Of a stretch of DNA of 64,000 nt, positions 3,490 through 38,904 are shown one piece after another (the stretch's first letter is position 1; each line of letters opens with the position of its first letter). Made by a program: the position numbers and the translations under genes. Under the pieces are notes generated by a model. It had not been told where the DNA came from. It ran no database searches and was given only the letters and a program-made list of their open reading frames with translations. Source of the DNA: an uncultured Gemmatimonadales bacterium (GTDB lineage: Bacteria; Gemmatimonadota; Gemmatimonadetes; Longimicrobiales; RSA9); assembly GCA_963798845.1 (NCBI GenBank), contig CAWCUS010000006.1, positions 128,001 through 192,000 of the forward strand, in the 5' to 3' direction.

Positions 3490-5321
3490 GGACGTTCCTT
3501 GACGAGTCGTTCGGAGAAGGGCCGGTAGGGATACCCGGTCCAGTGGATGCCGGCGTTGCTGGAGAACTCCAGCACGTTGAGGCGCACGCCGTGGGCGAAG
3601 ATGGCGATGAGGATCAGGGCGATGTTGAGCCCGTGCCCCACCACGAGGACGAGCCCGCCGGCGAACCAGGAGGCAGAGCCCGCCAGCATGACGGCCAGCA
3701 CGTTGAACGTGGAGCCGAGATAGTAGCTGGCCAGCCCTACGGCCATTAGGCGGATGTAGCTCAGCGTGTCGCTGAACGTCCCCAGGAACGGCAGCAGACT
3801 CCCGGCGACGCCCAGTCCGATGCGCGCGGCGAACGGCTGGTCCGGCCGACTGAATCCGGCCACCAGCACCATCCCCGTCACCAGCCCGACGATGGCGGCG
3901 CGCATCACCAGCGGCGGCACGCCTTCCTGGCCGAAGAAGAGCAGCCAGATGACGGCCAGCATGGAGACCAGCACGATGGACCAGCCGGCTTCCGCCAGCG
4001 CGGTCGGATCGGGGGCCACTTCCAGGAGCCTGCGGAGGTGGGCGGACACGAGGTGGGTGGCGCCGATGAAGAAGCAGATCTTGATCAGCAGCATCCGGGT
4101 CTCGGCCTCGGTGCCCCGGATGGCCTGGAGGGCGTGGAGCCCGCGGCCCAGCACGGCCACGGTGCCGCCGGCGTCCATCATGGCGGTGGGCGTGAAGCCG
4201 AACCACACGCCGGTCAGCGCGCCCCAGACCAGCCCGGCGACGCCGAACAGCCCCACCATGATCCGCATGTCCCGCCCGAGGGCTTCGCGCAGCCTGCGGC
4301 CGCCGAAGAGAGCGGTCAGGATGAAGAGCACGCCATAGCCCGCGTCGCCGATGATCATGCCGGCGAACAGCGGCAGCGCCACCATGAACAGCGCGCTGGC
4401 GTCCATCTCATCGTAGCCGGGGACCATGCTGAGGATGCGGAACATGCCGTCCACCGGACGGGCCCAGCGGCGGTAGCGCACCAGGGTGGGCGGGCGCTCG
4501 TCGGCGCGGGGCGCTTCCACCCGGAGCGCCACCGGCGGGTGGCCGCTCGCCAGCGCTTCGCTCAGCGCATCCACGCGCTCCTCCGGGAGCCACCCCTGCA
4601 CCGCGAACAGCCGGTCCTCGTCCAGTCCGCTCCGCGTCACCTGCTCCCAGCGCTGCTCCTTTTCCAGCCGCTCCCGCTCCCGCTCCAGGTCGGGAATCAA
4701 CCATGCCAGCGCGGCCAGCCGCTCCCGCTGCGCGTCCAGCGCCCAGTGCAGCGCCGCGGCCTCCGCTTCGATGCTGTCGCGGTCGCGCTCCGGCGGCGGG
4801 ACCTCCTCCGCACGCTCCGGGATGGTGTCCGCGTCCACATCGACCACGCCCACCGCCTGCCGTCCGCGGGACAGCTTCCGCAGCGGCTGGACGAAGCGGC
4901 CGCGCAGCGCTCCCACCGAGCGCTCGGGCACGATCAGGACGCGCAGGCTCAGCCCCGCATCCCGCAGCGCCTCGAGCTGCGCCAGGCGCACGCTCCCCCA
5001 GCGGTGCAGGCCGTCGGCCTCGCGGAAGAGGGTGTCCAGCCGCTGGCGCGCCTGCTCCCCCTGGCGCCCGATCCCCGCCACCTCCTCCGCAGCGTCACGG
5101 GCGCGGAGCGGCGGCCGCGGACCGCGCGGTTCGAAGGCCCGGAGCACCTGGAGCGCCGCCTCCACCTGACGGAGCGCCTCCAGCCGCTCCTCGCCCACCG
5201 GCCCTTCGTGCGGCCGGACCGGCACGATGTGCAGGACGCCCAGGTGGCGGAGCCGGCGCAGCATGGCATCCCGGTCCTCGTGGCGGCACACCGCGAAGGC
5301 CTTCACCATCGGAACGATCAC
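3486..5321 (-). CDS. ntpI: V/A-type ATP synthase subunit I
   Basis: GTG-IVPMVK start overlaps the D stop; QGWLPE, PGYDEMD, FAGMIIGDAGYG, SDTLSYIRLMAVGLA (essential Arg), HGVRLNVLEF. Confidence 0.92.
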   Translation of the reverse strand: MIVPMVKAFAVCRHEDRDAMLRRLRHLGVLHIVPVRPHEGPVGEERLEALRQVEAALQVLRAFEPRGPRPPLRARDAAEEVAGIGRQGEQARQRLDTLFREADGLHRWGSVRLAQLEALRDAGLSLRVLIVPERSVGALRGRFVQPLRKLSRGRQAVGVVDVDADTIPERAEEVPPPERDRDSIEAEAAALHWALDAQRERLAALAWLIPDLERERERLEKEQRWEQVTRSGLDEDRLFAVQGWLPEERVDALSEALASGHPPVALRVEAPRADERPPTLVRYRRWARPVDGMFRILSMVPGYDEMDASALFMVALPLFAGMIIGDAGYGVLFILTALFGGRRLREALGRDMRIMVGLFGVAGLVWGALTGVWFGFTPTAMMDAGGTVAVLGRGLHALQAIRGTEAETRMLLIKICFFIGATHLVSAHLRRLLEVAPDPTALAEAGWSIVLVSMLAVIWLLFFGQEGVPPLVMRAAIVGLVTGMVLVAGFSRPDQPFAARIGLGVAGSLLPFLGTFSDTLSYIRLMAVGLASYYLGSTFNVLAVMLAGSASWFAGGLVLVVGHGLNIALILIAIFAHGVRLNVLEFSSNAGIHWTGYPYRPFSERLVKERP

Positions 5322-5944
5322 GTGACGCCTCCTTCCAGCCGCTCGTACGCCGCCGAGAGCGCCGCCTTCGCGATCTTCGAGCGCCCGACGGCGCCGGCCA
5401 TCTCGTCGCCCAGGTGGATGCGGATGCGCTGGATGATCTCCTGCTTCTCGGGGATCTTCACCTTCTCGAACAGGTTCACCCGCTGCACCACCCGCGTCAG
5501 CTCCCGCCGCAGCAGCTCCCGGCGACGCTCCAGGATCTCCACCTCCGCTCGCCGGCGGTTCAGCGCCCGCAGGTCGTCCAGCGCGTGCTCCACCCATGGC
5601 GGCGTGACGAACAGGCTGTACTCCACGGCATTGAACACCACCTCGTCCAGCTCCGGCACCTGGACGCCCGCGACGTTCACGGTGCGCGCGCGCACCTCCG
5701 CCGGGTCGGCCATGGACCGGACGTCGAGCCCCGCCACGTCGCCGAGCACCGGGGCGTATCGGTCCAGCGACGCCCTCACCTCCGCCAGCCTCGCCCCCGC
5801 TTCCCTGAGCAGCGATTCCGTCTTCTGGAGCGTGGCCTGGAGCTGCTGCTGCCGCAGCTTCAGTGCGGGCAGAAAGCGCTCGTAGCGCACCAGAAGCTCC
5901 CGGCTGCGCTTCAGCTCGAGGCGGGTGAGGGAGACGCGAGCCAT
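5318..5944 (-). CDS. ntpD: V/A-type ATP synthase subunit D
   Basis: RFLPALKLRQQQL, NVAGVQVP, QRVNLFEKVKIPE. Confidence 0.92.
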   Translation of the reverse strand: MARVSLTRLELKRSRELLVRYERFLPALKLRQQQLQATLQKTESLLREAGARLAEVRASLDRYAPVLGDVAGLDVRSMADPAEVRARTVNVAGVQVPELDEVVFNAVEYSLFVTPPWVEHALDDLRALNRRRAEVEILERRRELLRRELTRVVQRVNLFEKVKIPEKQEIIQRIRIHLGDEMAGAVGRSKIAKAALSAAYERLEGGVT

Positions 5945-5951
5945 GGCCGCC

Positions 5952-7268
5952 TCAGGCCGCGTCCGCCTCGGCCAGCGGCCGCGGCCAGTGGGCTTCCAGG
6001 ATGCTGCGCCGTATGCCGGTCTCCACCGGCTCGATGCACTCGGCCAGGATCTCCCAGCACCGGTCCAGTGCCGCTTCCAGCGGGATGTCCACGGCCAGGT
6101 CCATCACCCGTGCCTCGAACAGCTCACCGTAGCGCAGCAGCTTCTCGTCCCACGGCGCCAGCTCGAAGCCCATCTCCCGCTTCTCGCGGCTCTCGCGCGT
6201 CCCGGCGTACAGCTGGATGCATGCGTCCATGATGGCCCGATGGTCGTCGCGCGTTTGCCCGTTCACCAGCTGTTTCAGGCGCGACAGCGAACCGAACGGG
6301 TCGATTCGCCCGTTCCGCAGGTAGAACTGGCCCTCGGTGATGTAGCCCGTGTTGTCGGGCACCGGGTGAGTCACATCGTCGCCCGGCATGGTGGTGCAGG
6401 CCAGCACGGTGAGCGACCCCGCGCCCTCGAAGTCCACCGCCTTCTCGTAGCGGCGGGCCAGCTGCGTGTACAGGTCGCCCGGGTAGCCGCGGTTCGACGG
6501 GATCTGCTCCATCGTGATGGCGATCTCCTTCAACGCATCGGAGAACGCCGTCATGTCGGTGAGCAGCACCAGCACCCGCTTGCCTTTCAGCGCGTACTGC
6601 TCGCCCACTGCCAGGCACAGGTCCGGAACCAGCATGCACTCCACGATGGCGTCGGACGCGGTGTGCACGAACATGATCGTCCGCGCCGAGACGCCGCCCT
6701 CCTCGAACGCGGTCCGGAAGGTCAGGTAGTCGTCGTGGCGCAGACCCATGCCGCCGAACACCACCACGTCCGCGTTGGCCTGGAGCCCCACCCGTGCGAG
6801 CAGCTCGTTGTACGGCTCCCCAGGCACGGAGAAGATCGGCAGCTTCTGGGACTCGACCAGCGTGTTGAAGACATCGATCATCGGGATGCCGGTCCGGATC
6901 ATCCGCCACGGCAGGCGACGCAGGACCGGGTTCACCACCGGGGACCCGAGCTCCACTTCCTCCGCCTCCGGCTCGGAGCGGCCGTCGCGCGGGCGGCCCG
7001 CGCCGTCGAAAACGCGCCCGAGGATGTCGTCCGAGAACGGGACGCGCATGGGCTTGCCGAGAAAGCGGACCCGGTCGGCGGTGGACACCCCCTGGGTGCC
7101 CGAGAACACCTGCAGGCTCACACGGTCACCGTCCAGGCGGATCACCTGGGCCAGCGAGCTGCCGCGCGCCCCCGTGATCATCGCCAGCTCGTCGTAGCCC
7201 ACGTTCGGGGCGCGCACCGTGACCACGCTCCCGGCAATGCTCGTGATACCGTCGTAGTACTTCCTCAT
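5952..7268 (-). CDS. ntpB: V/A-type ATP synthase subunit B
   Basis: [57 protein letters not shown]. Confidence 0.95.
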
Positions 7269-9013
7269 TGGACCTCGAGGCGCTGGGCGCGCGGCCGGCC
7301 CACGCGCTCGATGAAGCGATCGACCCGCGACAGCATCCGGTCGTACTCGTCGCTCCCTGCCGCGGCGTAGTTCCAGTTCCGGAAGAGGTCGCCGGCGCGA
7401 AGCATGGCCTTCCTCGCCTCCTCCTTCGTCTCGAAGTCCAGCTCCCGCCCCAGCAGGGTGAGGAGCCTGTCGAACACGAAGCGCTGCCGGTCCGCGGGCG
7501 TCGCCGCGTCCACTGCGTCGAAGGCGTTCTGCTGGAGGTAGCACGTGTCCAGCAGCTCCGCCTTCAGCATCACCGTGTAGTCCGGGACGGAAACGCCCTC
7601 CTCGCCCACCACCGTCATCATCTGGCGGATTTCGTCACCCCGCCGGAGCAGCGCTTTCGCCTTCGCCACCTTCTCCGGGGCCACGACGCCCCGGTACTTG
7701 CTCCACGACTCCAGCGGGTCGATGGCCGGATACCGGCGCGCCCTCGCCCGCGCGCTCGACAGCCCGTGGAACGCCCCCACCACCTTGAGCGTGGCCTGCG
7801 TCACCGGCTCTTCGAAGTTGCCGCCCGCCGGGCTCACCGTCCCGCCCACGGTGAGCGTGCCGGTGCGGCCGTCGTTGAGCTCCAGCGCTCCAGCCCGCTC
7901 GTAGAACGCCGCGATCCGGCTTTCCAGATACGCCGGGAAGGCCTCCTCGCCCGGAATCTCCTCCAGTCGGCCGGAGAGCTCGCGCATCGCCTGCGCCCAG
8001 CGCGATGTCGAATCGGCCAGCAGCAGCACGTGGGCACCCATCTGGCGGTAGTACTCGCCGAGCGTCACCGCGGTGTAGACTGACGCTTCCCTCGCCGCCA
8101 CCGGCATGGCCGAGGTGTTGCAGATGATGATCGTCCGCTCCATGAGCGTCCGCCCCGTGCGCGGATCCTGGAGCGCCGGGAATTCCCGGATCGTCTCCAC
8201 CACCTCGCCGGCCCGCTCGCCGCACGCGGCCACGATCACCACGTCCACTTCCGCGTGCCGCGAAGTGATCTGCTGGAGCACCGTCTTGCCCGCGCCGAAC
8301 GGGCCCGGAATGCAGTACGTCCCGCCGCGCACCACGGGGAAGAGAGTGTCGATGATGCGCACGCCCGTGACCAGCGGCTCGGATGGCATCAGGCGGCGGC
8401 GCGCGACCTCGAGCGGCACTTTCACGGGCCAGTGCTGCTGCATCGTGACCTCGTGTTCGTGGCCCCGCTCGTCACGCAGGAGCGCGACCGCCTCCGCTAC
8501 GGTGTAGTGCCCGGCCACGGCCACGGACGTCACGGTGTACCGGCCGCGGCGCGCGAACGGCACCATGATGGGGTGCTCGAGTATGCTCTCCGGGACGCTC
8601 CCCAGCACATCGCCCGCGCGCACGGTGGCGCCCGCCCTGACGGCGGGAGTGAAGCGCCAGCGCCGCTCCTGGGGCAGACCCGGCAGCGACTCGCCGGCCT
8701 GTAGGAAGAAGCCCGTTTCCCTCGCCAGCTCCGGGAGCGGGTTCTGCAGCCCGTCGTAGATCTGGCCGAGGAGTCCGGGGCCCAGCGTCACCGACAGCAG
8801 CTGGTCGCCCAGCTCCACGGGGTCGCCCACACGCAGGCCGCGCGTCTCCTCGAACACCTGGAGCTCCGCCCGCCGCCCGCGCACCCGGATGACCTCGCTC
8901 ATGAGCCTGGCGCCGTCTCTCCGGATGCAGCGCGCCACCGAGTTCTGGACCACGGCGCCATCCGTCTCCACGGCTACCATGTTGCCGTAAACCGCTGTGA
9001 TCCGCCCCATCAT
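7265..9013 (-). CDS. ntpA: V/A-type ATP synthase subunit A (catalytic)
   Basis: [17 protein letters not shown], Walker [53 protein letters not shown]. Confidence 0.96.
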
Positions 9014-9729
9014 ACGCCGGCCTCCTTCGCCAGCGTGCGCGGCCGCGGCCGGTCGGGACCGGCGCTGCGCTGCCAGCGGTGCAGCAGGACGAGCTTCGCG
9101 GCGTACGCTGCGAACTCGTCGTCGTCGAACGTGAACCAGGGTTCGCGCTGGTCGACCCAGCGCCAGCTCGCCGTGATCAAGGTCCTCAGCCCGGTGAGCG
9201 GGTCGGGCGCCGCCGACCACGCCGCCTGCGCCGCTTCCGCCTCCCCCTCGAACTGCTGGAGATCCCACGCCACCGTGTACCGCGCCGGCTCCATTCCGAG
9301 CGCTCTGGCCCGGGCCACGGCCAGCGCGTTGCGGAGCGCGACCTCCCAGCCCACCCACTCGCCGAGGAACCCGCTCGCTTCCGCCTCCGCCAGCGCGGCG
9401 GCGAAGCGGAAGTACGCCGTCCAGAGCGCGTCCATGGGAAAGGCGGGAGTCTCGACCGGGTCGGCGGCAACCGCCAGCTCGGGGGGCAGCGGCGCGCCGC
9501 CCCTGGCCTGCTCGTCGGTCAGCACGGCCAGATCGGGCTGCTCGATCTCCCCCGCGCACACCGCCTCCCGCTGCAGGAGGTCGTGAGACAGGAGCACGGC
9601 CCTGGAAAGGCGGTGGGCACGCCCCGCCGGAACATCGGCGAGGAATTCGCCGAGCGACAGCGGCGGGAGCGCCGGCGGCGGGTCCAGCACCGGGAGCGCG
9701 GCCAGACGGTAATAATGGGGGCTCGCCAT
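9010..9729 (-). CDS. V-ATPase subunit C-like protein (DUF2764-type)
   Basis: Lies between E and A; HYYRLAALP, FLGEWVGWEVALRNALAVARAR, FTFDDDEFAAYAAKL. Confidence 0.75.
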   Translation of the reverse strand: MASPHYYRLAALPVLDPPPALPPLSLGEFLADVPAGRAHRLSRAVLLSHDLLQREAVCAGEIEQPDLAVLTDEQARGGAPLPPELAVAADPVETPAFPMDALWTAYFRFAAALAEAEASGFLGEWVGWEVALRNALAVARARALGMEPARYTVAWDLQQFEGEAEAAQAAWSAAPDPLTGLRTLITASWRWVDQREPWFTFDDDEFAAYAAKLVLLHRWQRSAGPDRPRPRTLAKEAGV

Positions 9730-9739
9730 GCTGCGACCG

Positions 9740-10474
9740 TCAGCCGTTCCGCTTGGTGGAGCGTGCGAGCGCCGGAACCCCCACCTCGCCATCGGCATCG
9801 AGCGGCCCGCGGTCCAGAATCTCCCGGAGCCGCGGCCTCACCATCTCCATGAGCTTCTCCACCGTGGACTCGACGCTCACTTCAACGGTTCCACCCCGCA
9901 CACGGTACTCGAAGCCCGCCTCGCGCAGCGCACCCTCGACCCGCAGCCCGCTCGCGCCGGTGAGCCCGGCGGCGACCTCCTTCAGCCACCACGCTTCGAG
10001 CTGCTCGGCCAGCTCACGTGGCACCCGCACCTCGGTCGGACGCCCTTCCGCATCCGCCCGGGCGTACGCGCCAGCCATTTCCCGCAGCAGCGACCCCAGG
10101 AATTCCGGATCGCGCAGGCGCGCGTCCGCGGCCCGCGACAGCAGAGTCTCCAGCACTTCGTTGAGCTTGGTGCGCAGCTCGATGACCGCGTCCCTGGCCG
10201 CCAGCGTCAGCTCCGCCTCCGCACGCTCCCGCTCCCGCGACGCCGTGTCCCGCGCCTCCGCCAGGAGCGCGTCCGCCTCCGCCTTCGCGCGGCGGATGAT
10301 CTCGGCCGCCTCTTCCCTTGCCTCCGCCGCAAGCCGACGCGCTTCGTGCCTCCCCGTCTCGACACCTTCGCTGTGCAGCTGCGCTACGAAGGTCTCGAGG
10401 GTCAGGCTCGCCGCATCCGGGCCAGTGGCGCCGTCGGGGGCTTTCCTGCCCGTCCGCTTCTCGGATCGCGTCAT
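9740..10474 (-). CDS. ntpE: V/A-type ATP synthase subunit E
   Basis: QLHSEGVETG, helical AEAREEAAEIIRRAKAEA, ELTLAARDA, C-terminal VRPRLREIL; first gene of the operon. Confidence 0.85.
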   Translation of the reverse strand: MTRSEKRTGRKAPDGATGPDAASLTLETFVAQLHSEGVETGRHEARRLAAEAREEAAEIIRRAKAEADALLAEARDTASRERERAEAELTLAARDAVIELRTKLNEVLETLLSRAADARLRDPEFLGSLLREMAGAYARADAEGRPTEVRVPRELAEQLEAWWLKEVAAGLTGASGLRVEGALREAGFEYRVRGGTVEVSVESTVEKLMEMVRPRLREILDRGPLDADGEVGVPALARSTKRNG

Positions 10475-10791: not shown

Positions 10792-11700
10792 ATGTATTCG
10801 AACATTGTCGTCCCCCTGGACGGTTCGGAGTTCTCCGAACGGGCCCTGCCGTGGGCCCGCACGATCGTCCGCCGCTCCGGCGGCGCCCTCCGCCTGGTCC
10901 ACGTCCACATCCCGCTCCGCATCCCGACGTGCGCGGAGGTCATCGGACCGCGCGTGGGAGAGCAGCTCCGCCAGATGAAGGCAGACGCCGAGCGGCAGGA
11001 GCGGGCGTATCTGGAAGTGGCCCGGAGCGGACTCGAGCCGGAGCCGGCGTCCATTTCGACGGCCGTGCTGCGCGGCCCCATCGCGCCGTCGGTGGCCGAC
11101 CACGCGGCGACGGAAGGCGCTACCCTCATCGTCATCGCGACGCACGCGCGGCCGCCACTGGACCGGGTGCGCCTGGGAAGCATCACCGACGAGATCGTGC
11201 GGCGCTGCCAGATTCCGGTGCTCATCGTGCGAGGGGAGGATCACGTGCTCCCCGGCCCGAACGAGAGCGCGCCCGTGGAGCGCGTGGTGGTGCCACTGGA
11301 CGGGAGGCCCCGCTCGGAGCGCTCGCTGAGCTACGGCGTGGAGCTCGCCCGCCTCTTCGACGCCGAGGTGGTCCTGGTCCGGGTGGTCCGGTCCGGCCGA
11401 AGGACCGAGCGAGAGGACGCGCTCGGGTGCGCGCGGCAGTATCTGCGCGGCGTGGTCTCGCGCCTCGACGCCGCGGGCGTCGTGGCCTCCTTCCGGAACC
11501 CCGAGAGTCTGGACGTCGCCGATGCAGTGGCGGAAGTCGCCGAAGAGGCCGCCCCCGGCGTGGTGGTGATGGCCTCGCGGTATCGCAGCGGCCTTTCCCG
11601 CCTGGTGCTGGGGAACATCGCCGAGGAGCTGGTCCGGAAGTCGCCCGTTCCCGTCCTTGTAGTGGGTTCGCGCACGCACATCGCCCCGACCTCCTTCTGA
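10792..11700 (+). CDS. Universal stress protein (two tandem USP domains)
   Basis: IVVPLDGSEFSERAL ... LGSITDEIVR..IPVLIV; second domain VVVPLDG ... LGNIAEELVRKSPVPVLVV. Confidence 0.92.
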   Translation: MYSNIVVPLDGSEFSERALPWARTIVRRSGGALRLVHVHIPLRIPTCAEVIGPRVGEQLRQMKADAERQERAYLEVARSGLEPEPASISTAVLRGPIAPSVADHAATEGATLIVIATHARPPLDRVRLGSITDEIVRRCQIPVLIVRGEDHVLPGPNESAPVERVVVPLDGRPRSERSLSYGVELARLFDAEVVLVRVVRSGRRTEREDALGCARQYLRGVVSRLDAAGVVASFRNPESLDVADAVAEVAEEAAPGVVVMASRYRSGLSRLVLGNIAEELVRKSPVPVLVVGSRTHIAPTSF

Positions 11701-11895: not shown

Positions 11896-13446
11896 ATGAG
11901 AGCGACGGGGAACCGCGCACGGCTGTCCCTGATCGTGGTTGCGGGGGGTCTGGCGCTGGCGTCGTGCGTCGATGAAAGCGTGACGTACGAGGACCGCGGC
12001 CTCTACGGTCCTGGCGTGGAAGCCGCGGGAGGGTTCATCGGGTACGCCGACCCGTCCGACGACGACAAGCTGACGGTCTGCGGCTACTGCCACGGTACGG
12101 TGCAGGCGCAGTGGGAGCAGACAGCGCATGCGTCCGCGTGGGAGGGGCTCCAGTCGAGCGACCACGTCCAGCCCGTCTGCGAGGGGTGCCACACGGTCAA
12201 CTCGCTCGGCAACATCGTCCCGGAAGGGGAGGGCGGCGCGCCGGTGGGCGGGCACGCGTCGGCGGAGACCTCGAACGGGCGCTACCTGGATGTGCAGTGT
12301 GAGAGCTGCCACGGCCCCGGGATCACCCACGCGACAGACCCCAGCAAGGGCAACCGGCCGCTGGCGCCGGTGCAAGTCCGCAGCAGCCTGACCAGAGGGT
12401 GCGGCGAATGCCACAACGGTGTCCATCACCCGTTCGTGGAGGAGTGGGAGACGTCGCCGCACGGAAACGTCAACCCCGTCCCGGCGACCGACCAGGAAGA
12501 CGGGTGCGCCTCATGCCACTCGGGCGAAGGCGCGCTGCTCCGCCTGGGCGTCACCGCCGACTACCTCGAGAAGGACTCGCTGCTCGCCAGTGACGCGGCG
12601 TATGCGCAGATCGCGTGCGCGGTGTGCCACGACCCCCACTCGAAGACGAACCCGAAGCAGCTCCGCTTCCCCGTCGAGTCGGCCACGGTGGACAACCACC
12701 TGTGCGCCCAGTGTCACGATCGCCAGTCGCAGCCGAACGCGGCGGCGGACAACTTCTTCGAGTTCCGGCCGCACTCGCCGGAGACGGCCGAGCTGAAGGG
12801 GACGGCGGGGTACTTCCCGGCCACGGCGTCGATCGGCCCGGGGACGATCACGGGACCGCACGGCATCTCGAGCAATCCCCGCCTGTGCGCGTCGTGCCAC
12901 GTGGTGCCCTACACGGTCGAGGATCCGGCCTCGGGCGAGACCTTCACGTCCACCGGGCACGGCTTCCGGGCCGCGCCGTGCGTCGGCCCGAACGGGCTGC
13001 CCTCGGGCGAGGAGGACTGCGTGCTGACGACGACGGCGCGCAGCTTCAAGGGGTGCGTCTCGGGCGAGTGCCACGCCGGCGAAGCGGAGGCGCAGGCCAC
13101 GCTCGTGTCCGCGATCGACCGAGTCCTCCCGCTGGTGACGGCGCTGTACGCCCGTCTGAACCAGGTCGACCCGAACGGCAACCTGGCGGGCGGCGCGATC
13201 GACTTCACCGATGGCGTGCTCACCGTCGCCGACGGCGCCTACTTCAACCTGGCCCTGGCATTGTACCCGGGGAGCATCACGTCGCGGACGTCGCCGGAGA
13301 CGATCCGGGGCTACCTGGCTCCGTCGGTCACCCACAATCCGGCCCTGATCGAGGCGCTGCTCCGGGCCAGCCTGGAGGCGCTGGACGCTACGTATGGCCC
13401 CAGCCCCGGCGCGGCCGCGCTGCCCACGTCCGCGACCGACCGGTGA
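11896..13446 (+). CDS. Multiheme cytochrome c lipoprotein (8 CxxCH + 1 CX4CH)
   Basis: Lipobox LALASC. Heme motifs CGYCH, CEGCH, CESCH, CGECH, CASCH, CAVCH, CAQCH, CASCH, CVSGECH. Helical C-terminus GAYFNL...HNP. Confidence 0.92.
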   Translation: MRATGNRARLSLIVVAGGLALASCVDESVTYEDRGLYGPGVEAAGGFIGYADPSDDDKLTVCGYCHGTVQAQWEQTAHASAWEGLQSSDHVQPVCEGCHTVNSLGNIVPEGEGGAPVGGHASAETSNGRYLDVQCESCHGPGITHATDPSKGNRPLAPVQVRSSLTRGCGECHNGVHHPFVEEWETSPHGNVNPVPATDQEDGCASCHSGEGALLRLGVTADYLEKDSLLASDAAYAQIACAVCHDPHSKTNPKQLRFPVESATVDNHLCAQCHDRQSQPNAAADNFFEFRPHSPETAELKGTAGYFPATASIGPGTITGPHGISSNPRLCASCHVVPYTVEDPASGETFTSTGHGFRAAPCVGPNGLPSGEEDCVLTTTARSFKGCVSGECHAGEAEAQATLVSAIDRVLPLVTALYARLNQVDPNGNLAGGAIDFTDGVLTVADGAYFNLALALYPGSITSRTSPETIRGYLAPSVTHNPALIEALLRASLEALDATYGPSPGAAALPTSATDR

Positions 13447-13456
13447 GGCGGGGGCC

Positions 13457-14953
13457 ATGAGGTTCATCGTCCTGGATCGGCGCCGACGGGGCGGCCGGCC
13501 CGGCGTTCTGTCGTGCGCGCTGCTCGCGCTGCTGGCGGCAGCGCCCGCTGCGGCCCAGGGCGTTCGCGGCACGGCCACGACGACACTCCGCTACCTGACC
13601 CTTCGGCCGATCCAGTCCGACACCGTGGATGCCGCGAACGTCTCGGCCGAGGACGGACAGCTCGTGTTCGACGGGCACTCCGTCACCTGCCTCGCGGGCG
13701 GGCTGCAATGCGTCTATTACACGCCGGATGACGTGGCGCACGCGGCCGTGGGCACACAGGACATCTCCGCCACCGCGTGGGGATTCGGGGTCCGCGGCCT
13801 CAGCGCCACCTTCCTGCTGAGGGGGCGCGCCGACCTCGGCGGCGACTTCACCTGGCCCACGTCGGACGATCCGTTCGATGCCATCCTCGCCTACGCCGAG
13901 CTCCAGCGCTCCGGCTACCGCGTGCGCGCGGGGCGCCAGCGCACCCTCTCGGGGCTCGGCTTCTCCGGCTACGACGGCGTGGACGTGCTGGCCTCGCCGT
14001 GGCGCGCGCTCCGGCTGGAGGCATACGGCGGACGATCGCTCGCGCGCGGTCTGAACGACCCGGCCAGCGAAGCGCTCCAGGGCATCGAGGACTTCGTCCG
14101 GGACCAGCAGGCCTTCCTCTTCGGCGGCGCCATCGAGGCCACGCCGTTCGCAGGCACCTCGCTCGGGCTGCGGTATCAGCGCGAGATCTGGGCGGACCGC
14201 GCCGGCCTGCTGTCCGAGCGCGCGTCACTGGATTTCCGCTCCTCGTTGCCGGGCGCGCTCTCGCGTGTGCACCTGACCGGGTCGGTGGATTACGACTTCG
14301 CCTTCGACCGGGTGGGGAAGGCGCGGCTGAGCCTGCGCTCGCCACTCCCCGGCGACTGGGGCTGGGTCGAGCTCACGGGGCGACGCTATCTGCCCTACTT
14401 CGACCTTTCCACCATCTGGGGCTTCTTCTCCCCCACTCCGTACCACGAGGGCGAGGTGGGTCTCACGCTGCGGCACTGGCAGCCGCTCACCGCCTGGATG
14501 AGCGCTGGCGTCCGCGAGTACGGTGACCCGGAGATCTCGGTCATCGGATCCCCGATCTCGGACCGCTCCGTGCGCTACGCCGTCGGCGCGCGGTTCCGGA
14601 CGGGGGGCGTCACCACCTCCGGGGAGTACCGGCTGGAGACCGGCTTCGGCGCGGTGCTGAACTCGGGCGACGCCATGCTACGCTGGGAGACGGGACCTCG
14701 CCTCGCCCTCACCGTCCGGGGAACTGCGTTCCAGCAGATCGAGGAGTTCCGGGTGGGGGACAACACGGTGTTCGGCGGCGGTCTCGGCGCGGAGCTGCGT
14801 CTTCCGGGGGAGGCGCGGCTTACGGCGGGCGCGGACGTGTACAGGCAGGCCTGGGACCACCGGCCCAGCCAGGCGGACTGGAACCAGCTCCGCGCCTACT
14901 CGATCCTGTCCATCCCGTTTGGCAGCGACCCGGGCCTCAGGGGGCCGCGATGA
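13457..14953 (+). CDS. Predicted outer-membrane beta-barrel (porin of a porin-cytochrome complex)
   Basis: Signal peptide ending AAAQ; many amphipathic aromatic-rich beta strands (YRVRAGRQ, YDGVDV, LRLEAYGG, LGLRYQRE, VDYDF); sits between two multiheme cytochromes. Confidence 0.7.
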   Translation: MRFIVLDRRRRGGRPGVLSCALLALLAAAPAAAQGVRGTATTTLRYLTLRPIQSDTVDAANVSAEDGQLVFDGHSVTCLAGGLQCVYYTPDDVAHAAVGTQDISATAWGFGVRGLSATFLLRGRADLGGDFTWPTSDDPFDAILAYAELQRSGYRVRAGRQRTLSGLGFSGYDGVDVLASPWRALRLEAYGGRSLARGLNDPASEALQGIEDFVRDQQAFLFGGAIEATPFAGTSLGLRYQREIWADRAGLLSERASLDFRSSLPGALSRVHLTGSVDYDFAFDRVGKARLSLRSPLPGDWGWVELTGRRYLPYFDLSTIWGFFSPTPYHEGEVGLTLRHWQPLTAWMSAGVREYGDPEISVIGSPISDRSVRYAVGARFRTGGVTTSGEYRLETGFGAVLNSGDAMLRWETGPRLALTVRGTAFQQIEEFRVGDNTVFGGGLGAELRLPGEARLTAGADVYRQAWDHRPSQADWNQLRAYSILSIPFGSDPGLRGPR

Positions 14954-16404
14954 GGCGGAAGTGGGGTCTGTTGGGCGCGACGATCGTCGCCGTGGGCGTG
15001 GCGGGCGGGATCCTGGTCGGGCGTGCGGGCGCGGGTGAGCAGCCGGCTTTCCCGCATGCGACGCACGCTCGCCTGTTTCCCCTGTGCACCGGCTGTCACG
15101 AAGGCGTGCCGGAAGGGGACACGGCCAGCTTCTATCCCCCGCCGACGCTGTGCGCCCGGTGCCACAATGGCGTGCGTCTGGACAGCGTCGACTGGTCGCC
15201 GCCGGCCGTGCAACCGCGCGTTCCGCTCAAGTTCGCGCATCCCGGCCACATGGCCGTGCTCGACGCCGCCGGGGACACGGCGCTGGAATGCTCGACCTGC
15301 CACGTGCCGGAAGGAGCGGGGCGGATGAACGTGGCGCCGCAGCCCGTGCTCGCAGCCTGCTTCTCCTGCCACGGCCACCCGGCCACGCAGCACATGGTGG
15401 ACGCGGAGTGCGCCACCTGCCACGTCGAGTCCGTGGAGCACCCGCGGGTGGGCGAGTGGCTGGCCTCCCTGCCGTACCCGGCGGACCACGTCACCGCCGA
15501 CTTCCTGCGCGGGGGCCACGGCCGCCTGGCGCGCACGCAGCCCGAGCGCTGCGCCACCTGCCACACGCAGGAACGCTGCACCAGCTGTCACGTGAACGCG
15601 AACAGCGTCCCTGCGATCGCGGCCATGCCGGCGGCCCCGCCGGCCGTACGGCTGCCTCGCTACGCAGCGCACTACTTCGTGCCGCCATCTCACGAGGCGC
15701 CCGATTTCCTGGACACGCATGGCGAGATCGCCTCGGTCCAGGAGTGCTCGACCTGCCACACGCAGAACGACTGCGCGGCGTGCCACGCGGCCCAGCCGCC
15801 CGTGGTGGTGGCCGCCATGCCGCGCTCCGAGGACGTGCGGGCGCCCGGCGTGCTGCTGAAGCCGCAGCCGCCCTCGAGCCACCGGGTGGCCTCGTTCACC
15901 ACGCAGCACGGGGCGCTCGCCGCGGCAGACCCATCGTCGTGCAGCTCGTGCCACACGAGGAACATGTGCTCGGACTGCCACGAGGCCGCGGCCGTCAAGG
16001 TGGTGCTGCCGCAGGACCTGGCGGGGCCGCGCTTCCATCCGGACAACTTCATGGCACAGCATTCTGCCATGGCCTATGGCCGCGAGCTGGAGTGCGCGAG
16101 CTGCCACAACGTGGCGGCGTTCTGCCGCGACTGCCACGAGCAGGCGGGCTTCGGCACCAGCGGCAGGCTCAACGCCGGGTTCCACGATGCCGAGCCGAAC
16201 TGGCTGCTGCGGCACGGGCAACCGGCGCGGCAGGCGCTGGAGACCTGCGCGGCGTGCCACGAGCAGTCCGACTGCCTGCAGTGCCACTCGACCGTGGGCT
16301 CGTTCAGCGTGAGCCCTCACGGCAAGGGGTTCGATCCCGAGCGGGCGAAGGCGAAGAACCCGGCCATCTGTTTGGCGTGTCACGTGGAGGACCCGGTCGG
16401 GTGA
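14950..16404 (+). CDS. 16-heme cytochrome c (c3/c7-like repeats), exported
   Basis: N-terminal signal or anchor; 16 CxxCH motifs counted; ATGA overlap with the porin gene. Confidence 0.93.
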   Translation: MRRKWGLLGATIVAVGVAGGILVGRAGAGEQPAFPHATHARLFPLCTGCHEGVPEGDTASFYPPPTLCARCHNGVRLDSVDWSPPAVQPRVPLKFAHPGHMAVLDAAGDTALECSTCHVPEGAGRMNVAPQPVLAACFSCHGHPATQHMVDAECATCHVESVEHPRVGEWLASLPYPADHVTADFLRGGHGRLARTQPERCATCHTQERCTSCHVNANSVPAIAAMPAAPPAVRLPRYAAHYFVPPSHEAPDFLDTHGEIASVQECSTCHTQNDCAACHAAQPPVVVAAMPRSEDVRAPGVLLKPQPPSSHRVASFTTQHGALAAADPSSCSSCHTRNMCSDCHEAAAVKVVLPQDLAGPRFHPDNFMAQHSAMAYGRELECASCHNVAAFCRDCHEQAGFGTSGRLNAGFHDAEPNWLLRHGQPARQALETCAACHEQSDCLQCHSTVGSFSVSPHGKGFDPERAKAKNPAICLACHVEDPVG

Positions 16405-16433
16405 CCGGGCATCATTGAAAAGGAGCAGCAATC

Positions 16434-16883
16434 GTGGAGTACAAGCGCTGGATCATCGCCGCGACCGTGTTGGCACTGGTGGCGTGCGGGGGAGAGCAGG
16501 AGGGCGAGAAGCGGCCGCTGAGCGAGGAACAGCCTCAGGCGCAGCCGCAGCAGCAGAATGCACGGGTCGGGTGGCCCGAAGGGCTGGGTGACTCCGTGGA
16601 CCAGGCGAACGCCGCCTACCGCGAAGGCGACTACCAGGCCGCGGCGACCATGTACCGCGAGATGTCCGTGAGCCATCCGGACATCGGCACGGTGTGGTTC
16701 GGCCTCTACATGGCCGAGACCAAGCTGGGGAACAAGGCGGCGGCGGACTCCGCTCTGGCGCGCTCCAACGAGCTCAGCCCGGGGCTGGCCAACACGCACC
16801 AGGCCGCCACGGACACGACCATGCCGTCCGTTCACGAAGGAATGATGGAGATGCCACAGGGGCACCCGCCCATCAACCAGTGA
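16434..16883 (+). CDS. TPR-like lipoprotein with C-terminal Met/His-rich PQGHPP tail
   Basis: AAGGAG RBS, lipobox LVAC, helical repeat ANAAYREGDYQAA...WFGLYMA, tail HEGMMEMPQGHPP. Confidence 0.75.
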   Translation: MEYKRWIIAATVLALVACGGEQEGEKRPLSEEQPQAQPQQQNARVGWPEGLGDSVDQANAAYREGDYQAAATMYREMSVSHPDIGTVWFGLYMAETKLGNKAAADSALARSNELSPGLANTHQAATDTTMPSVHEGMMEMPQGHPPINQ

Positions 16884-16937: not shown

Positions 16938-16969
16938 GAACGGGCCCGGCCAGACGGCCGGGCCCGTTC
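16938..16969. terminator. Perfect 14-bp stem hairpin between convergent genes (candidate bidirectional terminator)
   Basis: gaacgggcccggcc-agac-ggccgggcccgttc. Confidence 0.65.
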
Positions 16970-21457: not shown

Positions 21458-22374
21458 ATGCTGAGAGAAGTGCTGCTGTTCATGAGCGGAAGCGCGGTGG
21501 CGCGCAGCTTCGTGACGCACGCGCCGTTCGCGCGCACCGTCGCCCGCCGCTTCGTGGCTGGCGAGACGCTGGACGAGGCCGTGAGTGCGGCGAGGGAGCT
21601 GAACGCGGCGGGGAACACGGTGACGCTGGACTACCTCGGCGAGTCGGTGAGCGACCGCTCCGAGGCGCGCGCGGCCGCGGACACCTACCTGCGCATGCTG
21701 GACCGGATCGTGGCCGAGCAGCTCGACGCCAACGTGTCGCTGAAGCTGACCCAGATGGGCCAGGACATCGACCCCGAGTTCCTGCGCGAGAACGTGGGGC
21801 GCCTCCTGGACCGCGCCGCCGAGAGCGACAGGTTCGTGCGCTTCGACATGGAATCCAGCGCCTACACGCAGCGCACGCTCGACTTCGCGGACCGGCTGTG
21901 GACCCATGATGGTCGGCGCAATCTCGGGATCGTGCTGCAGTCGATGTTGAAGCGGACGGACGCCGACGTCCATTGGGCTATCGAGCGGGGCATAGGGGTC
22001 CGCCTCTGCAAAGGCGCGTACATGGAGCCAGAAAGCGTGGCGTTCCAGGACAAGAAGGACGTGGACGCCAGCTTCCTGCGCTGCATGGAGCTGCTGCTCG
22101 AGCACGGCACGTACCCGGGAATCGCCACGCACGACGAGCGCATCATCAGCGCGACGCGCGACTACGCACGCGCCCACGAAATCGCGCCCGACCGCTTCGA
22201 GTTCCAGATGCTCTACGGGATCCGACGCGACCTGCAGCGGCAGCTGATCCAGGAAGGGTGGCGCCTGCGCGTCTACGTGGGCTTCGGCAACGCCTGGTAC
22301 CCGTACTTCATGCGGCGCCTGGCCGAGCGGCCGGCCAACGTGATCTTCGTGGCCAAGAACATTTCCGCGGCTGA
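21458..22374 (+). CDS. putB: Monofunctional proline dehydrogenase (natural stop probably lost by a 1-nt deletion, so it reads into queE)
   Basis: RRFVAGETLDEA, TLDYLGE, SLKLTQMG, RFDMES, RLCKGAY, IATHD, EFQMLYGIR, YFMRRLAERPAN. Adding one T at 22362-22364 gives KNIFRG* ending 22374. Confidence 0.85.
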
Positions 22375-22384
22375 CGCTGGGATC

Positions 22385-23050
22385 GTGGCAGGAACGCTCC
22401 GGGTCACCGAGATCTTCCACTCCATCCAGGGCGAGAGCACCTGGATCGGCCTCCCCTGCACGTTCGTGCGCCTGACCGGGTGTCCGCTCCGGTGCGTGTG
22501 GTGCGACACGGAGTACGCATTCCACGGAGGCGAGAAGATGTCGCTCGACGAGATCGTCGCGCGCGTGGCCGGGATCGGTACCCCGTTGGTCGAGGTCACC
22601 GGCGGGGAGCCCCTGGTGCACCGCAACGCCTTCGCGCTGGTCGAGCGGCTCCTGGACCGCGGCTACACCGTCCTCGTGGAGACTTCCGGAGCGCTCGACG
22701 TGGGTCCGCTCGATCCACGGGCGCACAAGATCATGGACCTGAAGTGCCCGGGCTCCGGGGAGTCGTCGAAGAACCTCTGGTCCAACCTGGACCACCTCAC
22801 GGGCCGGGACGAGCTCAAGTTCGTGATCCGTGACCGCGCAGACTACGAGTGGGCCAGGGAGGTCATACGGGAGCGGGGGCTGGACGCCCGGCTCGCCCAC
22901 CGGTCGCTGCGGGCCATCCTCCTCTCCCCTGTCTGGGACGGGCTGGGCCTGGAGGATCTCGCCCGCTGGATCCTGGAGGACCGTCTTCCGGTCCGCTTCC
23001 AGGTCCAGCTCCACAAGGTGATCTGGGGACCGGGCGTACCCGGGGTCTGA
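22385..23050 (+). CDS. queE: 7-carboxy-7-deazaguanine synthase QueE (radical SAM)
   Basis: EIFHSIQGES, FVRLTGCPLRCVWCDTEYAF, EVTGGEPL, ETSG, QVQLHKVIW. Confidence 0.92.
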   Translation: MAGTLRVTEIFHSIQGESTWIGLPCTFVRLTGCPLRCVWCDTEYAFHGGEKMSLDEIVARVAGIGTPLVEVTGGEPLVHRNAFALVERLLDRGYTVLVETSGALDVGPLDPRAHKIMDLKCPGSGESSKNLWSNLDHLTGRDELKFVIRDRADYEWAREVIRERGLDARLAHRSLRAILLSPVWDGLGLEDLARWILEDRLPVRFQVQLHKVIWGPGVPGV

Positions 23051-23067: not shown

Positions 23068-25449
23068 TCAGAGCCCGGCGCCAGGATCGAACGGCGACGC
23101 TGCGGGACAGGCCCCGAGAGCTGGTCCCGCGTCCAGCGGCGAGGCGTGCATGTCCGGCCGCCCCATGGCTTCGACGGTCGCCATGAGCGGCGTGAACGCC
23201 GCGACAACCGCCGGCGAAGGCGCCGCGTCCACCTCGTGCCCCTCCAGCGTCCCCTCGGCCCACCGCCCTCCCGCCGGCCCCAGCAGCTGCGCCGCGAGCG
23301 AGACCACGAGGCCCCGCGCGCGCGCGCTCGCCACGTCCGCCACCACGCGCCGCCGCGCGTCGAGCGTGCCGTCTCCGTAATCGGTGACGGCGCAGCGGCC
23401 CTCGACGGAGGCGAGCACGGAATCGCGGACGGACTCGAGCCTGTCCAGCTGCACCACCACGGACGCCATCCGGGCGAGCATGGGCGCAGGTGGCCCGGGG
23501 GCGGGCGCGCTGTCCGGGGGCGCCAGCACTCCCGTAAGCTCCTGATCGAGCAGGATTCCCGGCACCGGCGGCAGAGCGTCGGCGGACCCGCCCGACGGGT
23601 CGGGCAGAGGCGCCTCCAGGACCCGCCGCGCCAGGTCGTACGCCGTGGGCGAGCGCATGCGGCCGTAGCTCTGCAGGAACCAGCGCCGCGTCTCCGAGTA
23701 CACGGGCGCCACGTTGTCCAGCAGGGTGATCAGCGCCTGCCCCGCGCGCCCGGTCACGTCCGGCGGGCGCACGGTGCCATACCCGGTCAGGTAATCGTCC
23801 TGGACCGAGGACAGGTAGCCGTTGATCCGACCTTCCCTGGCAAGCGACACCGCCACGAACCAGTCGACGCTCCGCGCGAAGACCTCCGCCGGGCGGGTGG
23901 CGTGGCTCTGCAGCGATCTGGTGTCCACGCCCGGTGCGAGCGAAGCGGTGGTCAGCCCGTCCAGCGCCCGGGCAAAGCGGCCGTCCGCCAGGCGCACTGC
24001 GCGGTCTGTGGCGTAGTCGCCCCGGACGCGGTAGCGCCGGAGCGCCGTCTGCCAGTCCAGATCGTGCGCCACTTCATGGGCGATCGTTCCGGCCGCGGTT
24101 GCAGCGGGAAGGTACACGGTACGCGTGCGCGGATCGTGCACCGCGAGCGTCCCCGGGCTGCCGGGCCTCGCTTCGAACCGGACCTTCAGGCCACGCACGT
24201 CGAGCGACGGCATCACCCGCTGCAGGTCCGAAAGCGCGCTCTCCAGCATGCGTCGGTAGTACGGACGCCATGGCGCCGGCACTCCATCCGGGAACGACAC
24301 CGACGCCAGGCCGAAGCGGTCTTCCAGGTCACGGTCGGTGGGACCACCGAAGCCGGGGAACCACGGACGCTCCTGACCGTACGCCCGCATCGCCACCGCG
24401 GCCGACATCACCGCCAGTCGCTCCCCGGGTGAGGGCAGCGTGCGGTGCGAAAGCACAGCGTACTCCGCCGCCAGCTCCTCCTCGTTCAGGGCCCGGGCGA
24501 AGAACCGACCGTCCGGCCCCCCCTCGCGCGGGCGCCCCGTCGCGGCCGGATCGAACGGTGCGAGCGCCACCACCACCGGCGTCTCCGGCGGACCGCCGGA
24601 GTCTGCCGAAAGCTCCGAAAGACGCTCCGCCGCCGCCGCAGACAGCAGCGAGCGCTGCCTGGGCTCCGGCGCAGGGTTCAGCGGCCCCACCCGCGGCCGG
24701 TCGTGAATGGACCGGATCCCCTCGAGGAGCCGCGGCGCCAGCGCGATCGCCTCCCGCTCCGCATCCGCGGACACCGGCAGGATCGTGGGAGACTCCACCC
24801 GGAACCGGCGGTTCACCCGCCATACCGTCAGCAGTTTCAGCGGATCCGGCGCCGAATCCCCCTCCGCCACCTCCAGCAGGTGACGCGCATCCTTGCGGCT
24901 CACCACACGGTCCCGGAGAAGCGCGGTCGCATGCGCGGCACGCAGCGGAAGCGTCGCCGGGACCGTGCCCTCCGCCGCAGCCATCCCGAACGCCAGCCGC
25001 AGCGCCAGCTCCCCCGCATCGGGATCCGCCGCGCTTCCGATGGCCCCCTCGATCAGCTCCAGCTGCCGCGCGCCGGACTCCGGGTCTCCATCCACCGACA
25101 GCGTCCGCGGGTCCACACGGTACCCGGTCCCATCCAGCGCTCCCGCCATCAACGCCCACGCGAGCGCCTCCCGCTCCGGCTTCGCCAGTCGCGGATCCTC
25201 GAGCGCGTACTCCATCAGACGGAACGGGCTCCCCAGCCCCATGCGCGCCCGTTCCAGGTACCCCAGCTGGATCGCCTGCGCCGGACTGGCGGAAACGCGA
25301 GTCTGCGACACCAGCGCAGCGGCGTACCGACGCCCGCCATCGAGCTCCGCCCCCGCATCCCGGCCGAACGGCGCGGATTGCACAGGACCGCACGCCGTCA
25401 GCGTCGCCGCGGCGAGCAGCAGTGCGCGGGCTGCGCGGAGTCCCTTCAT
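23068..25449 (-). CDS. Large uncharacterised lipoprotein with zincin HEXXH motif
   Basis: Lipobox LTAC; TIAHEVAHDLD followed by RPAEVFAR. Confidence 0.75.
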   Translation of the reverse strand: MKGLRAARALLLAAATLTACGPVQSAPFGRDAGAELDGGRRYAAALVSQTRVSASPAQAIQLGYLERARMGLGSPFRLMEYALEDPRLAKPEREALAWALMAGALDGTGYRVDPRTLSVDGDPESGARQLELIEGAIGSAADPDAGELALRLAFGMAAAEGTVPATLPLRAAHATALLRDRVVSRKDARHLLEVAEGDSAPDPLKLLTVWRVNRRFRVESPTILPVSADAEREAIALAPRLLEGIRSIHDRPRVGPLNPAPEPRQRSLLSAAAAERLSELSADSGGPPETPVVVALAPFDPAATGRPREGGPDGRFFARALNEEELAAEYAVLSHRTLPSPGERLAVMSAAVAMRAYGQERPWFPGFGGPTDRDLEDRFGLASVSFPDGVPAPWRPYYRRMLESALSDLQRVMPSLDVRGLKVRFEARPGSPGTLAVHDPRTRTVYLPAATAAGTIAHEVAHDLDWQTALRRYRVRGDYATDRAVRLADGRFARALDGLTTASLAPGVDTRSLQSHATRPAEVFARSVDWFVAVSLAREGRINGYLSSVQDDYLTGYGTVRPPDVTGRAGQALITLLDNVAPVYSETRRWFLQSYGRMRSPTAYDLARRVLEAPLPDPSGGSADALPPVPGILLDQELTGVLAPPDSAPAPGPPAPMLARMASVVVQLDRLESVRDSVLASVEGRCAVTDYGDGTLDARRRVVADVASARARGLVVSLAAQLLGPAGGRWAEGTLEGHEVDAAPSPAVVAAFTPLMATVEAMGRPDMHASPLDAGPALGACPAASPFDPGAGL

Positions 25450-38898: not shown

Positions 38899-38904
38899 TG
38901 CCTC

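Follow-up and report, generated by a model that had tools for sequence, protein, structure and literature searches.

Positions 11896 to 16883 of the window analyzed here, a 64-kb stretch (G000:C6:128001-192000) of the 4.26-Mb, 96% complete genome G000 of an uncultured Gemmatimonadales bacterium, hold an operon of four genes, termed A, B, C, and D, which encodes a real and conserved variant of the porin-cytochrome conduit that is undescribed in the literature searched. The barrel protein B and the 16-heme cytochrome C very probably constitute a porin-cytochrome unit. Together with the lipoprotein cytochrome A, they probably form a conduit that carries respiratory electrons outward, from quinol via either the 20-heme NapC/NrfH-like protein X or a CbcL-like protein to C, then to A, and finally to an external acceptor. 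Labels beginning with G and L denote the genomes and loci compared.

As described in the first-pass annotation, the four genes are co-oriented and tightly spaced, with a gap of 10 nucleotides (nt) between A and B, a 4-nt ATGA overlap between B and C, and a gap of 29 nt between C and D. Gene A (11896-13446, + strand) encodes a 9-heme lipoprotein of 516 residues that belongs to the OcwA/OmhA type, has a C-terminal helical region, and is predicted to be the outer, terminal redox subunit. Gene B (13457-14953, +) encodes a plug-less, 22-stranded outer-membrane β-barrel of 498 residues with a signal peptide and of unnamed family, and gene C (14950-16404, +) an exported cytochrome of 484 residues, of whose 16 hemes the nine N-terminal ones are predicted to be periplasmic and the seven C-terminal ones to lie in the barrel. 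Gene D (16434-16883, +) specifies a small lipoprotein of 149 residues with a weak helical pair resembling the tetratricopeptide repeat (TPR). The heme counts given earlier were reproduced: A carries a lipobox, eight CxxCH motifs, and one CX4CH motif, and C carries 16 CxxCH motifs. All 24 CxxCH motifs present in the six frames of the window fall inside A (8) and C (16); their occurrence is therefore not due to chance. The lipobox sites are LASC24 in A and LVAC18 in D, and the G+C fraction at third codon positions is 0.89 to 0.92 in A, B, C, and D.

The proposal that the middle gene encodes an outer-membrane barrel of about 500 residues was borne out by structure prediction. Using an alignment of 108 rows, AlphaFold2 (AF2) folded the 498 residues of B into a barrel of 22 long strands with a β-rich first loop that bears an invariant cysteine pair, at a predicted local distance difference test (pLDDT) value of 87.5 and a predicted template modeling score (pTM) of 0.82; the single-sequence AF2 run gave a pLDDT of 29.4. 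The best structural matches were the barrel parts of TonB-dependent receptors (Z scores of 18 to 19.6, root mean square deviation [rmsd] of 3.6 to 4.5 Å), including PirA (Z 19.6, rmsd 3.6 Å, 354 aligned residues) and FyuA (Z 18.6), and the MtrB structure was matched with a Z score of 15.8 and an rmsd of 4.8 Å over 362 aligned residues. The barrels of TonB-dependent receptors have 22 strands. Such an identity was nevertheless rejected for B, which has no plug, whose model begins at strand 1, and which gave no match to the Plug family. B aligns to the barrel part of the receptors only (from about residue 134-210), with the plugs always outside the alignment; the lumen of B is therefore empty and an occupant is needed. 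Among the families of Pfam and NCBIfam, none matches B, and the same holds for curated families with another function. Sequence searches of the PDB with the barrel profiles A1, A4, and A5 returned nothing meaningful, and the matches listed by Foldseek and VIA-align comprised MtrB along with generic porins, ushers, and TonB receptors, but no porin of the Geobacter porin-cytochrome complexes (Pcc), to which B may nonetheless be related. Homologs of B numbered 587 at an E value of ≤0.001 among 8000 scored candidates, and a search with a barrel profile yielded 522 representatives at 50% identity.

The lumen of B is predicted to be occupied by C. Complex predictions for B and C scored 0.71, 0.79, and 0.83 (median, 0.79), whereas none of three controls exceeded 0.00. 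In calibration, 116 of 157 solved complexes and 2 of 215 mismatched pairs attain the pass mark, proportions that are rough here since own alignments were used. The runs shared at least 70% of their contacts, and the partner pLDDT was at least 77. Complex modeling thus supports the earlier suggestion that the 16-heme protein threads the barrel, with hemes 10 to 16 of C predicted inside B. All but one of the 22 strands make contacts, mostly through alternate residues, and the strand residues in contact are 31% hydrophobic versus 52% for the other strand residues; this alternation and the lower hydrophobicity are as expected for positions facing the lumen. On the side of C, 108 of the 111 contact residues lie in mature residues 281 to 449, which correspond to hemes 10 to 16, and none in the first 140 residues; the part predicted to be inserted comprises residues about 309 to 477 of C. 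The tightest contacts are formed by loop 7 of B (residues 286 to 296) with C 399-414, by loop 4 with C 359, and by loop 1 with C 371, and the periplasmic end of strand 14 of B touches C 285-286. Invariant residues of loop 7 contact invariant residues of C. In outer-membrane barrels, the loops following odd-numbered strands are extracellular. By this rule, hemes 12 to 15 of C would be oriented toward the outside and hemes 1 to 9 would be periplasmic in the model. Of the 35 histidines of C, 17 lie outside the heme motifs and are conserved at ≥90%; at about 28 residues per heme, this supply would be enough for a wire of 16 hemes that are all bis-His coordinated.

These contacts bear on the very unlikely alternative that no wire runs through the barrel, with B serving as a pore or anchor for cytochrome export, or A being periplasmic, and the hemes acting as an envelope-bound electron store. 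Such a role would suit the feature-based neighbors of B, of which those assigned to a Pfam family are barrels for polysaccharide export (score, 0.91), as well as the resemblance of its fold to the empty barrels of ushers and TonB receptors. It is at odds with a confident, control-beating model in which the whole lumen between periplasmic turns and outer loops is filled by C, with the invariable linkage of the B and C genes, and with the meeting of invariant residues at loop 7.

The earlier annotation had suggested a possibly uncharacterized family of conduits; the subunit A is not new in kind. The profile A3, built from 61 homologs of A, matched PDB entry 6QVM with an E value of 2.7e-18 (positions 83 to 449 of 477) and entry 6I5B (OcwA) with an E value of 3.8e-13. 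By sequence, A belongs with the OcwA/OmhA-type nonaheme cytochromes, 6QVM and OcwA being its closest solved relatives. Entry 6QVM is titled "multiheme cytochrome cf" and was taken to be OmhA because its chain length of 681 residues equals that of the product of the omhA gene, which is reported to span 2046 nt (PMC7829351). Hemes 1 to 7 of A have counterparts in the same order in OcwA, and hemes 8 and 9 and the helical tail align to 6QVM; the C-terminal helical region of A ends in an HN motif. Both OmhA and OcwA are described as surface Fe(III)-reducing cytochromes (PMC7829351; PMC6703420), and lipobox, homology, and gene context suggest that A, too, is located at the cell surface. Duplicated A genes occur near the barrel gene in L055, L064, L105, L106, L108, and L152, which suggests exchangeable outer subunits. 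An A-X fusion in L052, considered as a sign of a shared compartment, was discarded as an artifact of an N gap.

A possible role of A with soluble substrates was considered in light of its heme pockets. In the published description of OcwA, two His-His pairs sit over the open-coordinate hemes 2 and 5 (PMC6703420). Residues H177 and H178 of A align with the OcwA pair 281/282, and H293 aligns with OcwA H380; with conservation values of 100% for H177, 77% for H178, and 93% for H293, the first pair is kept and the second is half kept. Nine non-motif histidines of A are conserved at ≥90%, along with an invariant Cys362/Cys375 pair, and the mature chain contains no methionine, hence none to ligate heme 9. 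If H177 and H293 are pocket residues and the other seven histidines serve seven hemes, A would keep two open hemes like OcwA; alternatively, the same count could provide for nine bis-His hemes. The first of these options would suit an enzyme at the surface that reduces nitrite, hydroxylamine, NO, or toxic oxyanions, or a short-term electron sink, rather than a respiratory system for solids, and OcwA is reported to reduce nitrite and hydroxylamine (PMC6703420). We nevertheless regard this role as quite unlikely, as the kcat given there for nitrite is just 1 per min, periplasmic reduction of such compounds would be possible without a barrel, the nine conserved histidines could render all nine hemes bis-His, and A has no CxxCK motif. 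The latter, together with the lack of a PF02335 match, also led us to reject an identity of A as NrfA-type nitrite reductase.

Conservation of the operon was assessed in a sample of 401 genomes of the phylum, in which related genomes are not independent and blanks in metagenome-assembled genomes are no proof of absence. A search with the single protein B matched 182 of the 401 genomes, and the barrel profile A4 matched 196, of which 181 belong to the class Gemmatimonadetes (E values below 1e-50) and 15 to the other class(es) of the phylum (E values of 1e-6 to 1e-20). Synteny was compared in 78 close loci and in 40 distant loci picked from lower-scoring matches on long contigs. Gene C follows B in 76 of the close and all 40 distant loci, so that the linkage anticipated from the single sequence holds class-wide (116 of 118 loci); of the two loci that deviate, one is cut off by a contig end and the other shows a B-C read-through. 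Sixteen hemes were counted in C of the source genome and in 62 members of the C cluster. The guess that the DNA stems from Gemmatimonadota proved right in that the named homologs and loci are from this phylum, the closest being labeled Longimicrobiales. When B, C, and the short-type porin described below were searched against plasmids by tblastn, no match was obtained.

Upstream genes were counted in loci with at least 3.8 kb of upstream sequence (55 close, 40 distant). Gene A was present upstream of B in 51 of the close and 29 of the distant loci, and X in 44 and 29, respectively; a CbcL-like gene directly precedes B in 1 and 9. Two forms of X occur: a NapC/NrfH-like protein that is anchored in the membrane and carries 20 hemes (41 of 64 cluster members), and an exported protein with 9 to 10 hemes that matches the C-terminal half of the former. 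Matches of X to the NrfH/NapC models were below or near the cutoff (TIGR03153, E value 6e-13; PF03264, E value 1.4e-9). The four-gene unit first described is thus correct for the window, but as a family norm the unit is usually larger and includes the inner-membrane, quinol-linked cytochrome X. Recurrent neighbors in the 78 close loci are D (53 loci), a monoheme lipoprotein E (30), CbcL-like genes (19), and Rieske/cytochrome b genes (7 to 8). An uptake [NiFe]-hydrogenase operon adjoins the cluster on either side in 10 of the close loci (L049, L053, L058, L088, L093, L097, L102, L105, L106, and L108) and in 4 of the 40 distant ones.

The window itself does not contain X. In a quick IQ-TREE phylogeny of window B and 73 barrels from the 78 loci, with truncated, fused, and uncalled barrels left out, window B falls into a clade of 10 members (Shimodaira-Hasegawa-like approximate likelihood ratio test, 100) in which A always adjoins B, and which under midpoint rooting is nested among X-containing loci. 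In this clade, X was moved rather than lost. The relocated partner locus of G000 (C2:466727-477468; L110:6727-17469) comprises X, a D paralog (D'), the monoheme lipoprotein E, a two-component system, a gene for a CbcL-like protein with 11 hemes and a cytochrome b part, and a 13-heme gene. An intact X-D'-E arrangement with 20 hemes in X is present in G433, G167, G439, and G444, with the A-adjacent barrels on other contigs. In G000, the 20-heme NapC-like gene (C2:466727-468541) is frameshifted, being split by one extra base, and the corresponding contig from a related organism, 630 nt long at depth 5 and with 88 differences, is one base shorter at this point. Within the window, proline dehydrogenase and a radical SAM protein (QueE-like) appear as one open reading frame (ORF) of 530 residues (21458-23050); the two are separate genes in G422, G433, and G439 and form one 634-residue open frame in G167. 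The split of X and this "fusion" together suggest indel errors in the assembly, of which the frameshift in X would be one. Should X instead be genuinely inactivated, the feeding function could still be performed by the products of two intact CbcL-like genes, the second of which (G000:C2:443352-445580; L109:3352-5580) encodes a protein with 15 hemes and a cytochrome b561 domain and lies beside response-regulator genes. Elsewhere in the genome (G000:C6:10265-14000; L112), a 10-heme X-like half, a 9-heme cytochrome with a membrane tail, a Rieske protein, and a cytochrome b are encoded in a row; in L032, L033, and L050, this set of genes stands directly after the conduit operon.

In the mechanism proposed for outward electron transfer, quinol would be oxidized at the inner membrane by X or by a CbcL-like multiheme/cytochrome b protein, both encoded outside the operon in G000, and the electrons would pass to the nine N-terminal periplasmic hemes of C. 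From there, the path would follow hemes 10 to 16 through the 22-strand barrel B and reach A, the OcwA/OmhA-type lipoprotein, which is presumably in contact with B at the surface and, under oxygen limitation, would reduce external acceptors such as Fe(III) oxides, humic quinones, or electrodes. Cytochrome c assembly genes are present in G000, as are [NiFe]-hydrogenase matches, several molybdopterin enzymes, and 21 ORFs with at least two CxxCH motifs. With its heme-copper oxidases, the hydrogenase, the molybdopterin enzymes, and the multiheme ORFs, G000 has the means to live under oxic as well as anoxic conditions.

Several points weigh against this mechanism. MtoAB and PioAB, conduits of like architecture, run inward. 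G000 has three matches to subunit I of heme-copper oxidases, X is frameshifted in G000 and, at another place in the gene, in the same-genus genome G422, and A is absent within 5.5 kb upstream of B in 11 of the 40 distant loci (about a quarter). The pass of the B-C model may in part reflect likeness to the solved MtrAB complex (6R2Q), and the interface positions on the barrel strands show no higher conservation than the remaining strand positions (0.68 versus 0.67 in A1, 0.38 versus 0.45 in A4). Moreover, a cultured marine member of the phylum is reported to show no anaerobic growth with or without nitrate (PMC11651109).

Some of these observations would also fit a conduit that works mainly inward, with Fe(II), minerals, reduced humics, or partner cells as electron donors and the quinone pool or oxidases as recipients. 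Porin-cytochrome wires such as MtrCAB are reversible, and besides its three oxidase matches G000 encodes an additional Rieske/cytochrome b pair next to multiheme genes. The distant loci in which a CbcL-like gene, B, and C follow one another (9 of 40) and those with no A nearby (11 of 40) point in the same direction, the loci without A recalling oxidizer clusters described as having no outer cytochrome (PMC4245776). The relationship of A to terminal reductases and the recurrence of a hydrogenase operon, i.e., an electron donor module, beside the cluster argue the other way, so that we consider mainly inward transfer unlikely and retain the outward direction.

In its overall layout, the operon is of the porin-cytochrome type, as the first-pass annotation had stated, i.e., a three-part cluster with a 22-strand porin beside a multiheme cytochrome and a lipoprotein cytochrome. 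The predicted unlikeness to MtrA and MtrB was likewise confirmed: C has 16 rather than 10 hemes, B has 22 rather than 26 strands, the number reported for MtrB-type barrels (PMC12133095), and there is no family match. No model of the MtrB/PioB family, whose barrels have 26 or more strands, matches B or the 90 members of alignment A4, and no NCBIfam model matches C at E ≤0.1, nor is C, with its 16 hemes, a decaheme cytochrome of the MtrA/DmsE family; TIGR03509 (MtrB) found no match in G000, but as none was found in 14 control genomes either, this blank is weak. The idea of c7-like repeats in C was upheld in part, as C7-type Pfam matches are best at residues 95 to 158 and the remainder consists of paired CxxCH-x4-5-CxxCH units. 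With MtrCAB, MtoAB, and PioAB, the conduit shares a cytochrome predicted in the barrel with its N-terminal part in the periplasm, a lipoprotein cytochrome as putative outer partner, and a NapC-family quinol dehydrogenase as feeder (CymA in the known systems), whereas A, with nine hemes and its matches to 6QVM and OcwA, is not of the decaheme MtrC/OmcA type. OcwA, from Thermincola potens (6I5B), resembles A in its nine heme motifs, the order of hemes 1 to 7, and the partly kept His-His pocket, and OmhA, from Carboxydothermus ferrireducens (6QVM), in hemes 8 and 9 and the C-terminal helical tail. They differ in that A is a lipoprotein encoded with a barrel, whereas OcwA and OmhA function in Gram-positive bacteria and are described as having no association with porin-cytochrome complexes (PMC7829351); OcwA furthermore has a β-sheet insert and a Met ligand at heme 9, neither of which is found in A.

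A close correspondence is to the Geobacter-type Pcc. Clusters of this type include OmbB-OmaB-OmcB and ExtABCD as well as those of Anaeromyxobacter and Ignavibacterium (IALB_1837-1839) (Shi et al. 2014, PMC4245776), and their published architecture comprises a porin of 18 to 22 strands, a periplasmic cytochrome with 5 to 14 hemes, and an outer cytochrome with 1 to 15, often atypical, heme motifs (PMC4245776). The conduit works like this type in that it shares the three-part layout and agrees in two of the three architectural criteria, namely, the 22 strands of B, encoded beside a cytochrome gene, and the predicted outer cytochrome with an atypical CX3-4CH motif (in A, nine hemes, CX4CH, and a lipobox); this comparison is one of architecture. 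It differs in the 16 hemes of C, in the longer B (498 residues) with its disulfide-bearing first loop, in the OcwA/OmhA-type outer subunit, and in that the Gemmatimonadetes operon usually has its own 20-heme NapC-like protein. Feature look-alikes of the inserted half of C were found in Atlas clusters of Myxococcota, Ignavibacteriota, and Thermodesulfobacteriota (0.90 to 0.95), three phyla in which Pcc are reported (PMC4245776). For PCC3, the published description gives medians of 34 and 21 hemes and porins of up to 42 strands, and for PCC4, periplasmic proteins with 4, 5, and 10 hemes and no outer cytochrome (He et al. 2017, PMC5566968). Although these systems likewise have a predicted porin, multiheme cytochromes, and a link to an inner-membrane b-type component, neither, as described there, fits 9, 16, and 20 hemes with 22 strands. 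The conduit thus belongs neither to Mtr/Mto/Pio nor to PCC3, PCC4, or the TonB receptors.

That the system represents an uncharacterized family, as first proposed, applies to the long form with a 16-heme cytochrome, but is called into question by shorter relatives. In the other class(es) of the phylum (L117, L161-L165), a shorter porin of about 410 to 430 residues is followed by a cytochrome with 11 to 14 hemes. The barrel alignment A4 matched the short-porin alignment A5 with a probability of 99.0 (E value 3.4e-18, 357 columns), and C is homologous to the cytochromes that follow the short porins (probability 98.9). A search for homologs of the short-type porin returned 9 proteins. The pairs of short porin and cytochrome fit the published size range of Pcc, which speaks against full novelty, and the long form may be a distant branch of Pcc. 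We consider the chance that B and C are distantly related to the Geobacter Pcc to be better than even.

No description of the operon was found in the literature searched, which was mostly non-subscription; members of the family might be among the entries tabulated in PMC13264449 (PCC table) and PMC11316326 (FeGenie tables). The earlier hints for the phylum in the sources at hand are one MtrCAB singleton, ImcH and CbcL homologs, and Cyc2. A FeGenie survey of 495 marine metagenome-assembled genomes reports three MtrABC operons, Cyc2, and generic DFE_461-465 homologs, with iron reduction and oxidation indistinguishable (PMC11316326). Gemmatimonadota are described as abundant in soils and sediments and as mostly aerobic in their energy metabolism (PMC10581226). 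It is conceivable, albeit somewhat doubtful at present, that close to half of the Gemmatimonadetes carry an undescribed wire of their own across the whole envelope, made up of a 20-heme NapC-like quinol dehydrogenase, a 16-heme barrel-threading cytochrome, and an OcwA/OmhA-type reductase at the surface. If so, a dominant soil and sediment lineage whose members are mostly seen as aerobic heterotrophs would be a large, overlooked iron- or humic-respiring group missed by current marker sets. Because the barrel was found in 181 genomes of the class among the 401 sampled, the conduit may be the main route of the phylum for electron exchange with the outside. OcwA/OmhA-type reductases have so far been characterized only in Gram-positive cells without porins, and the coupling of such a reductase to a porin-cytochrome wire is a target for structural work. 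The barrel profile provides a specific, testable marker.

Regarding the remainder of the operon, the description of D as a TPR lipoprotein is supported for the lipobox, but the TPR match is only subthreshold (PF13432, E value 1.6e-4, 22.5 bits versus a cutoff of 32.7); D is possibly a helper in assembly or maturation. The hairpin reported downstream is indeed a perfect 14-bp inverted repeat with a 4-nt loop (16938-16969, no strand assigned), located 55 nt 3' of D, with a convergent HIT gene on its other side, and might be a terminator. It has no U-run and was not returned by intrinsic-terminator calling; in the same-genus genome G422, a hairpin of different sequence at the equivalent position is followed by TTTT. 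Directly upstream of A, on the same strand, lies a tandem universal stress protein gene (10792-11700), homologs of which also occur near the operon in L040, L041, L070, L077, and L078. A V/A-type ATPase operon on the - strand (3031-10474) is transcribed away from this gene and the conduit operon.

Further cytochromes of G000 include two tandem 6-heme lipoproteins (G000:C3:81321-83675; L111:9322-11675), in which the lipobox is followed by a collagen-like GPxG linker and the helical tail ends in HNP; no barrel homolog was found in this neighborhood, and the two proteins are possible further surface reductases. A membrane-anchored octaheme protein (G000:C6:659476-660867) resembles the hydroxylamine oxidoreductase family, its PF02335 match being weak. 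On the - strand of the window, a predicted lipoprotein of 793 residues (23068-25449) gave no Pfam match at E ≤0.001, and a SusC/SusD-like pair of a TonB-dependent receptor and a lipoprotein is encoded at 37459-41904.

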